From: Chloroflexota bacterium
GTDB taxonomy: Bacteria > Chloroflexota > Dehalococcoidia > JACPPT01
Direction: 5' to 3'
Length of the DNA stretch: 64,000 bases
Assembly: GCA_016190815.1 (NCBI GenBank)
Contig: JACPPT010000058.1
Span: forward strand, 2,826-66,825
The translations under genes and the position numbers were made by a program. This document shows, one piece after another, positions 59,767 to 64,000 of this stretch (its first letter is position 1; the number at the start of each line of letters is the position of its first letter). Under the pieces are notes generated by a model. It was not told the DNA's origin. It made no database searches and worked only from the letters and a program-made list of their open reading frames with translations.

Positions 59767-59967
59767 ATGGACCCCAGTAATGCCGTCTTGACCATAGGTG
59801 AGCTTGCCGACTACTTGAAAATCCCTAAGTCAACGGTCTACAAGCTGGCCCAGCAGGGGAAGATTCCGGGGCAAAAGATCGGGCGTCATTGGCGCTTCTC
59901 AAAACAGGCAATCGACCAATGGCTAGAGCAGACGCACAAGCTTGGCAAGGGAACTGGCCGGCGATGA
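59767..59967 (+). CDS. Excisionase-family (MerR-like) helix-turn-helix DNA-binding protein
   Basis: LTIGELADYLKIPKSTVYKLAQQGKIPGQKIGRHWRFSKQAIDQWL, the classic excisionase-type HTH; 66 aa. Confidence 0.8.
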   Translation: MDPSNAVLTIGELADYLKIPKSTVYKLAQQGKIPGQKIGRHWRFSKQAIDQWLEQTHKLGKGTGRR

Positions 59968-60686
59968 AGAAATCCCGCGAAGGGAGAACGGCTCCCGAGG
60001 GGGAGTCTCCTTTGTTGTCCAGAGAATACTGGGCGGCCATTCGAGTGTGGTACAAGTCAGGGGGGCGACACCATTTACCCTGGCGCCAAAATGCCACCCC
60101 ATGGAACATCATGCTGGCAGAAACGCTTCTCCACCGGACACGCGCTGACGCTATTCAAGTTCTCTATCCTCGGATAACGGAAGAGTTCCCGGGCCCAGCC
60201 GCGATCGTCAAACGTGAGTCTGAATGGCTGGAGATGAGCAGATCTGCCGGTTTGACATGGCGTGCCGTTACCTTTGTCTCTGCCTGCAAGGAATTGTTGG
60301 CACAGCACGGGGGACTCGTGCCGAGTGAGCGCGAGGCTTTGTTGGCGCTTCCGGGGGTTGGGCACTACATAGCCAGCGCGGTTCGGTGTTTCGGTTTCGG
60401 TATCCCTGAGGTCATCGTGGATAGCAACACAATCAGGCTGTCAAGCCGCATTTCAGGTCGAGCGCTTGTGGCCTCTCGTCATCGTTCGAGAGAGGTACAG
60501 AAGGCGGTGGCAAGTCTTGGGGAAGTGGGTAGACCCTCCAGTCCGGCTGATAACTACGCACTCCTGGATCTGGCGACAAAAGTTTGCCGGATCACCAAGC
60601 CCGACCACTGGGGATGTCCAATTCGAGCGACTTGTGCAACGGGAAAGCACGTCATTGCAGGGAGCGCTTCCACCTCCGCCACTTGA
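59964..60686 (+). CDS. HhH-GPD superfamily DNA glycosylase (MutY/Mig-like)
   Basis: LPWRQNATPWNIMLAETLLHRT, HhH LLALPGVGHYIASAV, catalytic-Asp block VDSNTIRL, and an Fe-S loop reading CRITKPDHWGCPIRATC. The ATG overlaps the HTH stop (ATGA at 59964-59967). Confidence 0.75.
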   Translation: MKKSREGRTAPEGESPLLSREYWAAIRVWYKSGGRHHLPWRQNATPWNIMLAETLLHRTRADAIQVLYPRITEEFPGPAAIVKRESEWLEMSRSAGLTWRAVTFVSACKELLAQHGGLVPSEREALLALPGVGHYIASAVRCFGFGIPEVIVDSNTIRLSSRISGRALVASRHRSREVQKAVASLGEVGRPSSPADNYALLDLATKVCRITKPDHWGCPIRATCATGKHVIAGSASTSAT

Positions 60687-60750: not shown

Positions 60751-62148
60751 GTGCAGGATGCCTCTGATTCTATCGCAGAAACTTGGTGCTCTGGAGGTGA
60801 TTATCAGCGGCATTCCTCATTTAGTCCGGAGGAATCTCCTGTGACTGCGAACGCCGAATCTACAGTAACTGCTGGGGCCACTGTTCGTGAGGCGGTGGCA
60901 ATGAATGCGGAACCTCCGAGGCTCAAGCTTCCAACCTTTAAGGGAAAACGGCTCAAGCTCGGCCGGCGTCCCGGTTCGCCAGATCCCGAGGACGTGGGAC
61001 TCTCAAGGCGATGGGTCGGCTCCCAGTCGAGGCCTTGGGCGGTAGATCTCTTCGCTGGCGCCGGAGGACTCAGCCTCGGGCTCAGAGATGCCGGCATCAA
61101 CGTGATCGCCGCTGCGGAGGAAGACCCCGTTGCTGCCGAAACACATGCCGCAAATCTCGGTGGGCTGACATGGGTGGGTGATCTGCGGGATTCATCGTCC
61201 TTCGTCTGCTTTCTTAGAGAAAGGGGCATCGACCAGGTGGATATCGTGGCAGGTGGCCCCCCTTGCCAGCCGTTTTCGAACGCCGGACTGGCAAAGATAC
61301 GTAGCCTCCCGAGGCGTCAGAATGATGAACGCACAGGACTCTGGAGAGCGTTCTTCGGGGTGATTGACGAACTTGCTCCAAGGGTGGTTCTGCTGGAGAA
61401 TGTTCCAGCCTTTGCCAGCATGCAAGAAGGGGCAATCCTGGCGGCCTTCGTGGGGGAACTGGAGGAGCGAGGATTCAACACGCAGGCCAGAGTGGTGGAG
61501 GCCTGGAAGTATGGCGTTCCACAACATCGCAAGCGCCTGTTCGTGGTTGCCACCCGTGAGGGTGAATCCTTTCGCTGGCCCCGACCAAGCAGGAAGGTGC
61601 CCACGTTGCGGGATGCGATCGGCGACCTCCCGGTCGTGGGGCCAGGCCACAGGGAGGAGGTTATAACCAGAGAGCGTCGTCCCAGCAGCCCACTGGCAAG
61701 ACGTCTGAGAAAGAACTTGGCCGAGACGGAGATTGGTACTGTCACCGACCACATCACCAGGGAGGTTCGCTCCGACGATGCGGAGATCTTCGCTCTCATG
61801 AGGCCAGGACAGACCTACGCGGATGTTCCGCCCGCGATGCGCCGATATCGGGCCGATATCTTCGATGACAAGTACACCAGATTGTCGTGGGACGCACTGA
61901 GCAGGTCGATCACTGCCCACATTGCTAAGGATGGCTACTGGTACATTCATCCAGAGCAGGACCGGACGCTGTCTGTCCGGGAGGCCGCCCGGATTCAGAC
62001 CTTTCCCGACTGGTTCAGGTTTGCCGGGCATCCATCGAACAGGTTGCGGCAGATCGGGAATGCTGTTCCACCGATGCTGGCCGCTGTACCTGATATTAGG
62101 CAAAGTTGCCTGATCATATTCGGGCGTCACGCAAGAGGAGCAACCTAA
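60751..62148 (+). CDS. DNA (cytosine-5)-methyltransferase
   Basis: Motif I DLFAGAGGLSLGL, IV GGPPCQPFS, VI LLENV, VIII QHRKRLFVVA, IX-X TFPDWFRF...RQIGNAVPP. The N-terminal about 100 aa is low-complexity. The start could be GTG 60751 or ATG 60901. Confidence 0.9.
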   Translation: MQDASDSIAETWCSGGDYQRHSSFSPEESPVTANAESTVTAGATVREAVAMNAEPPRLKLPTFKGKRLKLGRRPGSPDPEDVGLSRRWVGSQSRPWAVDLFAGAGGLSLGLRDAGINVIAAAEEDPVAAETHAANLGGLTWVGDLRDSSSFVCFLRERGIDQVDIVAGGPPCQPFSNAGLAKIRSLPRRQNDERTGLWRAFFGVIDELAPRVVLLENVPAFASMQEGAILAAFVGELEERGFNTQARVVEAWKYGVPQHRKRLFVVATREGESFRWPRPSRKVPTLRDAIGDLPVVGPGHREEVITRERRPSSPLARRLRKNLAETEIGTVTDHITREVRSDDAEIFALMRPGQTYADVPPAMRRYRADIFDDKYTRLSWDALSRSITAHIAKDGYWYIHPEQDRTLSVREAARIQTFPDWFRFAGHPSNRLRQIGNAVPPMLAAVPDIRQSCLIIFGRHARGAT

Positions 62149-62996
62149 TGCCCCAGGACTGGACGCGCGAGGAAGTGGAGGCTACAGTCGCCGACTACCT
62201 CGCCATGCTCAGCGCCGAGCACATAGGCCAGGAGTACAGCAAAGCCGAGCACCGACGCAACCTGGGCAAGCTCTTGAACAACCGGAGCGACGGGGCGATC
62301 GAACGGAAGCATCAGAACATCAGTGCCATCCTGATCGAACTTGGCCTGCCGTATGTCGACGGGTACAAGCCGCTTCGCAACTTTCAGCAGCTCCTCTTTG
62401 AGGTCATTGAAGATCGACTTCGCAATACTCCCCAACTCATCACTATGGTTGAGGAAGAGGTCCAGCGTCCCGCCGAACTACCGACAGTCGATGACATTCT
62501 GTCGGCCCTGGTGGAGCCACCGCGAAGGTCGACTCGGCCCAATTCCGCTTCGATACGGGTGTCCGACCGGCACATTCCCCTACCACGAATCAACTACCTG
62601 GCCATGGAGGCCGGCAACAGGTCACTAGGCCGGGCTGGCGAGGAATTCGTGGTGCGATTCGAGGTTGCCAGGCTTACAGCCGTACGGCAGGAACGACTTG
62701 CAGCACAGATAGAGCATGTTGCAGTGACCCGCGGTGATGGCGCGGGCTACGACGTACTCTCGTACGAGACGACAGGCCAAGAACGGCTCATCGAAGTGAA
62801 GACAACCTCCTACGGACCACAAACGCCCTTCTTCGTAACTAGAAACGAACTCGCGGTATCACATGATCGCGCGGCCGGGTACCATCTCTATCGCGTCTTC
62901 AGCTTTCGTAAGACGCCTCGGCTATTTCACAAACGAGGTAGGATTGACGAGCAGTTCGCACTCGCGCCCGAGCAATACCTTGCGCGGGTTGTGTGA
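62148..62996 (+). CDS. DUF3883-type PD-(D/E)xK nuclease-like protein (candidate restriction endonuclease)
   Basis: C-terminal GRAGEEFVVRFE...GYDVLSY...ERLIEVKTT...FFVTRNELAVS...YHLYRVF matches DUF3883 with a D...E-x-K motif. ATG 62148 overlaps the dcm stop (TAATG). Confidence 0.65.
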   Translation: MPQDWTREEVEATVADYLAMLSAEHIGQEYSKAEHRRNLGKLLNNRSDGAIERKHQNISAILIELGLPYVDGYKPLRNFQQLLFEVIEDRLRNTPQLITMVEEEVQRPAELPTVDDILSALVEPPRRSTRPNSASIRVSDRHIPLPRINYLAMEAGNRSLGRAGEEFVVRFEVARLTAVRQERLAAQIEHVAVTRGDGAGYDVLSYETTGQERLIEVKTTSYGPQTPFFVTRNELAVSHDRAAGYHLYRVFSFRKTPRLFHKRGRIDEQFALAPEQYLARVV

Positions 62997-63098
62997 CGCC
63001 TGATGAGCGCATGAACCTGATGAGCCGCCGTCGGTGGTGGGTTCGCTTTACTGATTCCTACCCAGGTCGGCTAATACGCGTATACAGGCCGGGCCAGA

Positions 63099-63142
63099 CG
63101 TAGCGGCGCCCCAACAGTATCGGGGCGCCGCTACGACCGCTT
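63099..63142 (+). terminator. Strong GC hairpin closing the methylation module (terminator-like)
   Basis: Perfect 14-bp stem CGTAGCGGCGCCCC (63099-63112) / GGGGCGCCGCTACG (63122-63135) with a 9-nt loop, followed by ACCGCTTTATT (weak U-tract). Confidence 0.6.
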
Positions 63143-63279
63143 TATTGACACCTATGTTCATTAGCAGTCCAAGCAGACATCAATAATTGCAGTAGCCGTA
63201 GTGCAATAATGAGCGTACTGCCCACCCCATCGGATTGCTGTAGAACCCGGCCAGTACGCCCCCCTGGGATCGTCGCGGC

Positions 63280-64000
63280 ATGGTTGTCGGCCACGTGCAG
63301 TCGGGTAAGACTGCAAACTATGCCGGTCTGATATGCAAGGCCGCCGATGCCGGGTACAAGCTGGTCGTCATCATTGCGGGAATCCACAACATACTACGGA
63401 ATCAGACGCAACTGAGGATCGACGAGAGTTTCGTCGGTCGCGATAGCGCCAGGCTGCTCTCGAAGAAGGATGATCGTTTCATCGGCGTGGGCCGCTTCGA
63501 TCAGACCCGGCGCCCCGTGACGTTCACGAACTCGGTCAAGGACTTCAGCAAAGCAATGGCCACCAGCGTCGGCCTCCCGCTCCAGAATCTCAACGAGCCC
63601 GCTGCGTTCGTGATCAAGAAGAACAGCACCACATTGAAGAATCTGCTCGAGTGGCTCAGGGAACACAGCGCCCGAGGAGGTGCTCGGACGATAGACGCCC
63701 CCATGCTCCTCATCGACGACGAAGCCGACAACGCGTCGATCAACATCCGACACGGCAAGGGGGAAGTGTCGCGCATCAACGGACAGATTCGAGACCTGCT
63801 TCACCTGTTTGAAAGAAGCTGCTATGTCGGATACACGGCGACACCCTTTGCCAACATCTTCATCGACCCTGATACCGATGACGAGATGCTAGGCGAGGAC
63901 CTGTTCCCTCGGAATTTCATCGTGAGCCTCGATCCGCCCTCCAATTACTTCGGCCCGGACAGGGTCTTCCTCCACGAATCCGAGAATTTCATCCGTCATA
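63280..64000 (+). CDS. Z1-domain-family P-loop protein, 3' end outside window (absent from ORF track); possibly 5'-truncated
   Basis: The plus-strand frame is open from 63244 to the window edge: MVVGHVQSGKTANYAGLICKAADAGYKLVVIIAGIHNILRNQTQ...LLIDDEADNASIN...CYVGYTATPFANIFIDP. In-frame TAG codons at 63199 and 63241 leave only 5 residues before the Walker A. Confidence 0.7.
   Translation, partial: MVVGHVQSGKTANYAGLICKAADAGYKLVVIIAGIHNILRNQTQLRIDESFVGRDSARLLSKKDDRFIGVGRFDQTRRPVTFTNSVKDFSKAMATSVGLPLQNLNEPAAFVIKKNSTTLKNLLEWLREHSARGGARTIDAPMLLIDDEADNASINIRHGKGEVSRINGQIRDLLHLFERSCYVGYTATPFANIFIDPDTDDEMLGEDLFPRNFIVSLDPPSNYFGPDRVFLHESENFIRH

Follow-up and report, generated by a model that had tools for sequence, protein, structure and literature searches.

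The type-3 prokaryotic MORC/paraMORC restriction-modification operon described by Iyer, Abhiman & Aravind in 2008 (PMC2292703) is composed of a GHKL ATPase, an SFII helicase with a C-terminal DThhQXuRhFG domain (Z1), a novel RE-fold protein, AIPR, Dcm and Vsr. In the intact system, as presumed after these authors, Dcm would mark self DNA, a GHKL-Z1 motor would engage unmarked DNA, and the DUF4420 protein and/or AIPR would be the effector. A putative 'type II' defence system with a similar inventory was reported by Miller et al. in 2022 (PMC9523054), with ~20% identity to the validated mzaBCDE genes, and includes a 925-aa Z1 protein, a PD-(D/E)XK DUF protein, a cytosine methyltransferase, AIPR and a MORC-family protein. 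MzaABCDE itself is given as an anti-phage system in Gao et al. 2020, as cited in PMC9523054, where MzaA is described as a sigma factor. The stretch of 64,000 nucleotides analysed here (the window, C43:2826-66825), from a groundwater Chloroflexota-like MAG, carries an operon of this known type, and the window copy is a damaged member.

The gene in question is the plus-strand ORF 63280..63999(+), which starts at ATG 63280 and is 3'-open at the window edge, as the first-pass annotation had stated; on the contig it reaches 775 aa (L003 606-2933) and its end is extrapolated to position 65607. The translation reads MVVGHVQSGKTANYAGLICKAADAGYKLVVIIAGIHNILRNQTQ..., LLIDDEADNASIN and YVGYTATPFANIFIDP. 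These blocks had been quoted as Z1-family signatures, and they are indeed present, but they belong to the P-loop/helicase part of the protein. The Pfam Z1 model (PF10593), a search that had been proposed as a check, matches the full 775-aa ORF at aa 264-493 over the full model length (1.4e-79, 267 bits, cutoff 25); because this domain lies beyond base 64000, the in-window part of the ORF has no match to the Z1 model, only one to AAA_22 at 0.0096. The translation keeps the SFII/P-loop motifs, namely the Walker A GHVQSGKT, the DDEAD box (LLIDDEADNAS) and the TATP motif (GYTATPF), and the DThhQXuRhFG motif, as defined in PMC2292703, is present beyond the window as YDTLMQMGRWFGY, such that both the profile score and the motifs place the protein in the Z1-domain family. 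We take the window frame (63280..64000, plus strand) to be the 3' 85%, codons 136-909, of a Z1 SFII-helicase-like P-loop gene, similar to MzaC. Relative to one related gene it shows 92% nucleotide and 94% amino acid identity, with about three synonymous changes per nonsynonymous change, which identifies plus as the coding strand and bears out the earlier view that the overlapping minus-strand ORFs are antisense shadows.

Upstream lies a methylation module, all on the plus strand. Its first gene (59767..59967) encodes a small HTH_17 regulator of the excisionase/MerR-like type (Pfam HTH_17 7.6e-20; PADLOC mad1 1.1e-12), and is followed by a HhH-GPD (MutY/Nth/Mig-like) DNA glycosylase gene at 59964..60686, for which the ORF listing gives the start TTG 59889. 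The glycosylase matches NCBIfam mutY (4.3e-33) and nth (4.2e-14), both below cutoffs, as well as the PADLOC 'type II nicking endonuclease' model (1.5e-20), and shares 60% amino acid identity with the HhH gene of locus L096; it is probably the T:G mismatch repair partner of Dcm, replacing Vsr. The C5 cytosine DNA methyltransferase, Dcm, follows at 60751..62148 (Pfam DNA_methylase 2.2e-58; TIGR00675 4e-47, above cutoff), and the 3' 240 nt of its gene are 85% identical to L010. The fourth gene (62148..62996) encodes a DUF3883/NOV_C protein of PD-(D/E)XK type with 282 aa (NOV_C 1.6e-20; PADLOC PDC-S36 1.4e-102), the same length as its homologues, and has 90% amino acid identity to those of L010, L011 and L096. 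Pairing of Dcm with HhH-GPD, and not with Vsr, is also seen in the reference Dehalococcoidia and other Chloroflexota-type loci L015-L024, L026, L029, L032, L033, L038, L068 and L075, while Vsr is the Dcm partner in proteobacterial loci; the replacement of the T:G repair partner thus looks lineage-specific.

Beyond base 64000 the Z1 gene is followed, in order, by DUF4420, AIPR, an RHH gene, a tyrosine integrase and tRNA-Arg(TCT), in agreement with the earlier expectation that more of a system would lie there and that the Z1 P-loop gene belongs to a multi-gene, dcm-linked defence locus. The DUF4420 PD-(D/E)XK gene is intact (334/343 aa; Pfam 7.8e-67), and so is the AIPR gene (691 aa; Pfam AIPR 1.5e-98, AIPR_N 1.3e-40). 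Early stops downstream, which had been named as a sign against a surviving system, are absent, the three remaining ORFs (Z1, DUF4420 and AIPR) being fully open. The island in which these genes reside has a GC content of 0.586, versus 0.534 for the genome, with the integrase and tRNA-Arg adjacent. Its end was extrapolated to 69235-71527 (L003 6561-8853), a segment with the RHH gene, an unassigned 202-aa ORF, the tyrosine integrase and the tRNA-Arg(TCT); an att direct repeat of the 3' part of this tRNA was not found on the 79-kb contig.

Compared with the operon of Iyer et al. 2008, the locus shares the Z1 helicase with its diagnostic motif, the RE-fold DUF4420, AIPR and Dcm, in the same order as in relatives, and the linked Dcm is accompanied by a probable T:G repair gene upstream. 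In contrast, a HhH-GPD glycosylase takes the place of Vsr, as in many Dehalococcoidia loci, a DUF3883 cassette is found at the break, the helicase is without its first 135 residues, and there is no GHKL ATPase gene adjacent to it. The first-pass annotation had expected a HATPase partner downstream, but this gene is normally directly upstream of Z1, and here it is missing: no GHKL gene was found in the window, the contig or the assembly, which is 71% complete, so that the gene could sit in the unassembled part. The parts list of the type II system of Miller et al. 2022 is that of the intact relatives of the window (L005-L008) and of the 80 reference loci, whereas the window copy is truncated and without a MORC/GHKL partner, and the defence role of both is putative. 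As for MZA, Z1, DUF4420 and AIPR match the MzaC, MzaD and MzaE models (NCBIfam NF041933-5) at 4.6e-146, 5.1e-37 and 1.9e-107, but with scores of 488, 128 and 360 bits against equivalog cutoffs of 1500, 420 and 1050, respectively, so that the downstream genes, although present and intact, and the Z1 gene, aligned to positions 135-788 of the 806 of NF041933, all remain below the cutoffs. No match to the MzaB GHKL/MutL-like ATPase was detected in the window, contig or 71%-complete assembly, and none to MzaA by PADLOC among the small flanking genes. The window locus, which is dcm-linked and lacks MzaA and MzaB, is therefore, as far as these scores tell, a distant MZA-like relative and not an MZA system.

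The suspicion that the N-terminus is missing was well founded. Comparison with the 897-917-aa homologues and with the MzaC profiles shows that the Z1 gene is truly 5'-truncated, by ~135 residues. Of the 119 best database homologues (the window's own protein excluded), 118 have 895-917 aa, the nearest, P0002, having 909 aa and 94% identity. Residue 1 of the ORF enters the MzaC profiles at position 135 of 806 (NCBIfam) and 140 of 952 (PADLOC). The N-terminus is carried in 77/80 reference-genome loci, where the match to P0002 begins within the first 17 residues; the other three are ambiguous, L043 starting at residue 12, L078 being cut by the contig end, and L077, with an apparent start at residue 48, having in fact a frame of full length (943 codons) whose N-terminus is divergent. 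Relatives read ...LGLMENPSREGPWDRRGMVVGHVQSGKT, from which ATG 63280 is recognised as the conserved internal Met136 of the 909-aa form, within ...PWDRRGMVVGHVQSGKT. It is also the only possible start, as had been proposed: TAG codons stand in frame at 63199 and 63241, and no ATG, GTG or TTG occurs between 63244 and 63279. What the ORF lacks, relative to a full-length Z1 protein, is a ~135-residue N-terminal helical domain with a PWDRRG linker, in which P77, W78, L79, P88-W91, R93, Y94, D112, T115, R117, W131 and R133-G135 are near-invariant. In an AlphaFold model of the intact relative P0002, of moderate confidence (pLDDT 62, pTM 0.45), residues 1-121 form six helices and 122-135 a linker, and residues 136-139 (MVVG) form strand beta-1 before the P-loop, so the window protein would begin exactly at beta-1 of the P-loop fold. 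A PDB sequence search gave no match for the Z1 protein, and only matches to MORC2/MutL ATPase domains for the GHKL partner.

The region between the methylation module and ATG 63280 has a composite structure. The NOV_C cassette, which abuts the break, includes a 3' flank of 45 nt (62997..63041, plus strand) with 82-90% identity to L010 4258-4300 and L096; the similarity to L010, L011 and L096 ends at 63041, and in L010 the same flank leads directly into codon ~161 of the GHKL gene. It is followed by an orphan spacer of 166 nt (63042..63207), in which the in-register identity to Z1 genes is 11-30%, i.e. at chance level, and which has no match in its own genome, the fetched loci, GHKL proteins or, above threshold, Rfam. 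The spacer contains a perfect 14-bp GC-rich hairpin at 63099-63135 (dG -34.8 kcal/mol, z -4.7), which ends 145 nt before the ATG, as the first-pass annotation had noted in calling it a terminator, but its U-tract is weak; it could be the end of a mobile element, or a terminator that arrived with an element since lost. The next 54 nt (63208..63261, plus strand) are a degraded, untranslatable Z1 remnant corresponding to codons ~112-129, with the in-frame TAG 63241, and have an in-register identity of 48-59% to L004, L005, L007 and L010 (p<=1.5e-4 against shuffles); the translation, NERTAHPIGLL*NPASTP, aligns with DAETDRILGLMENPSREG. At 63261..63262 the identity to L004 rises abruptly, from 54% on the left to 94% on the right, and in BLASTN of the window versus five relatives the alignments all begin at 63261/63262. 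The remnant is 54% identical to the L004 clade and 59% to L010, which are themselves 52% identical there, and so is about equally far from both lineages, while the window branch of the gene body has only ~3% substitutions, which indicates different histories for the two. We infer that the remnant derives from a different Z1 lineage than the gene body, and that 63261/2 is a recombination joint within the conserved PWDRRG/P-loop box; if so, the joint sits exactly where sequence conservation in the helicase gene is highest.

Several readings would have nothing lost at this point. That some Z1 proteins begin naturally just before the P-loop is suggested by gene calls such as the 779-aa Z1 of L010 and L011, starting MVVGQVQSGKT, and the 786-aa P0008, and homologues of this kind had been named as an observation against truncation. 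However, the frame in L010/L011 is open upstream and homologous to long-form residues 66-149, and an adjacent 99-aa ORF holds codons 1-~65 in another frame, so these genes are frameshifted long genes; P0008, whose first base is base 6 of its contig, is cut by the contig edge, and both MzaC profiles include the ~135-140 N-terminal positions. A natural short family is thus most improbable. Slightly less so, though still very unlikely, is an assembly error in the MAG, either a chimeric join or a frameshift, behind which the full-length gene would be intact; the frameshift had been raised as an alternative to truncation. The assembly is fragmentary (71% complete, 81 contigs), and at a conserved box such as that of the joint an assembler can switch from one strain to another; on the other hand, two runs assembled separately (Logan run-level assemblies, contigs of 4.8 and 1.9 kb, 99.98-100% identity) agree in all 304 nt spanning the junction. 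Nor could the gene be restored by a frameshift, because neither Z1 codons 1-111 nor the GHKL gene has a homologous match in any upstream frame; codons 1-111 were likewise not found elsewhere in the incomplete assembly. There is also next to no chance that TAG is recoded or suppressed upstream and a longer protein made. The frame upstream of the ATG does encode PWDRRG and, if TAG 63241 is read through, a weak Z1-like stretch, but TAG is a normal stop in this genome, where it closes 200 of 487 long frames, no tRNA with a CTA anticodon was found, and even with read-through the homology stops at codon ~112, with no start codon.

The first-pass annotation had named insertion of the four-gene methylation module as a possible cause of the truncation, an explanation that finds no support here, since Dcm and a mismatch-repair gene are native neighbours of such operons; instead, the break itself has the end of the NOV_C cassette (63041), the orphan spacer, the remnant from the other lineage and the joint at 63261/2. 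In relatives the order is HATPase_c_3 GHKL ATPase (498-499 aa), Z1 (909 aa), DUF4420 (334 aa) and AIPR (~690 aa), and the Z1 start overlaps the GHKL ATPase stop. A complete GHKL gene is found directly upstream of Z1 in 75/80 reference loci. Of the other five, three stop short at a contig end, in L077 no GHKL gene could be detected, and L081 retains only 50 residues of one. Dcm with Vsr or a HhH glycosylase is near the Z1 operon in most of the 80. NOV_C is absent from all 80 reference Z1 loci, and when 80 NOV_C loci were considered, only 4 had any Z1 sequence in the vicinity, in each case a broken piece or an unrelated neighbour, so the window architecture is unique in both sets. No relative of the genome nearer than class level was found, and of the 41 genomes searched, its own among them, only three have any Z1 relative.

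The metagenomic loci L010, L011 and L096 have the arrangement HhH-Dcm-NOV_C-deltaGHKL-frameshifted Z1-DUF4420-AIPR. Like the window, they have the same left module, including the NOV_C gene and its 45-nt flank, and a damaged GHKL-Z1 pair, but unlike the window they keep GHKL codons 161 to the end and all Z1 codons, although frameshifted, and their Z1-AIPR genes are of another lineage, with ~71% nucleotide identity in patches. The '352-aa' gene of L010/L011 encodes GHKL from residue ~161 onwards and lacks the ATPase domain, the part with the MORC2 and MutL structure matches. In these two samples (L010 4254-8064 and L011 1210-5002) the Z1 gene is frameshifted near codon 65 and DUF4420 and AIPR look intact, which represents a second, independent decay state of this operon type. 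NOV_C (PDC-S36) cassettes, at 62148-63041 in the window, L010 3409-4300, L096 4089-4980, L101 23-1023 and L131 716-1649, are found beside broken GHKL-Z1 sequences in three configurations: at Z1 codon ~112 in the window, at GHKL codon ~161 in L010/L011/L096, and, in L101/L131, next to a reversed 45-aa Z1 fragment (residues 526-572). This cassette may repeatedly land in, or recombine with, GHKL-Z1 operons.

In our view, with a probability of roughly 75%, the locus is a truncated remnant of the known dcm-linked GHKL-Z1-DUF4420-AIPR operon in a GC-rich island, which has lost its 5' part and is probably inactive. The whole GHKL gene and Z1 codons 1-~111 are missing from the operon and would have been lost by recombination or deletion linked to the DUF3883/NOV_C cassette. 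L010, L011 and L096, in which NOV_C is fused to a GHKL gene without ATPase domain and Z1 is frameshifted, could represent an intermediate stage, and the gene body from codon 129 onwards would have been joined at the PWDRRG/P-loop box to the remnant of another Z1 lineage. Without the six-helix N-domain, the PWDRRG linker and the ATPase partner, and placed behind a hairpin with no recognisable promoter (a sigma-70-like promoter was not found upstream of the Z1 ORF), the machine is probably inactive as defence. Translation is possible, since Met136 is conserved and a weak GGGA stands 11 nt upstream of ATG 63280. A docking role of the N-domain toward GHKL is plausible, because this domain was lost together with the translationally coupled GHKL gene. 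We also consider it rather likely, though with less confidence than the remnant reading as a whole, that the inactivation was recent. With substitutions polarised, N/S is 18/59 along the branch to the window copy and 10/30 along that to its intact sister (p = 0.82), so there is no signal of relaxed selection in the retained codons, a result that says little on the time since truncation if the body was recently recombined in. From the lack of relaxed constraint it follows that either the event is recent or some function remains.

The latter option, that a Z1 protein without its N-domain acts with DUF4420 and AIPR as a functional minimal variant, in defence or abortive infection and without GHKL, seems to us unlikely, yet it deserves more weight than the readings without any loss. 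The DUF3883 nuclease or Dcm might in that case supply the input. The three ORFs are intact, the window branch has the same N/S as its intact sister, the Walker A, DDEAD box, TATP and Z1-domain motifs are all retained, the same arrangement is seen in three assemblies, and NOV_C is itself a PADLOC defence candidate. The three assemblies, however, probably sample one population, the pairing of NOV_C with Z1 has no counterpart in the reference loci and only broken or unrelated ones in the NOV_C loci, no promoter was found, and the stable hairpin of the spacer lies upstream. Furthermore, the N-domain and linker are nearly invariant in the family, and by the model the ORF starts exactly at beta-1 of the P-loop fold. 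The stronger form of this proposal, a GHKL-independent module of P-loop-start Z1 core, DUF4420 and AIPR that selection maintains and that remains able to restrict phage or plasmid DNA, with DUF3883 perhaps replacing the input of the ATPase and N-domain, we regard as more doubtful still; it would imply that the N-domain and GHKL ATPase are regulatory, and not essential, in the operon family.

Taken as a damaged remnant, the locus is a small, well-resolved case of defence-island turnover; if the remnant does work, it would define dispensable parts of a widespread operon family. It also holds a lesson for annotation: the Z1 ORF would pass in gene calling as a clean 775-aa "Z1 domain-containing protein", and defence-finding software might score the locus as a partial MZA-like system, despite the lost ATPase partner and conserved domain. 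Incomplete copies were also observed among the reference loci: in L072 the Z1 gene ends at residue ~662 and there is no DUF4420 or AIPR, and these two genes are likewise absent from L081, in addition to the reduction of its GHKL gene. Operons of this type seem to have decayed in part more than once.
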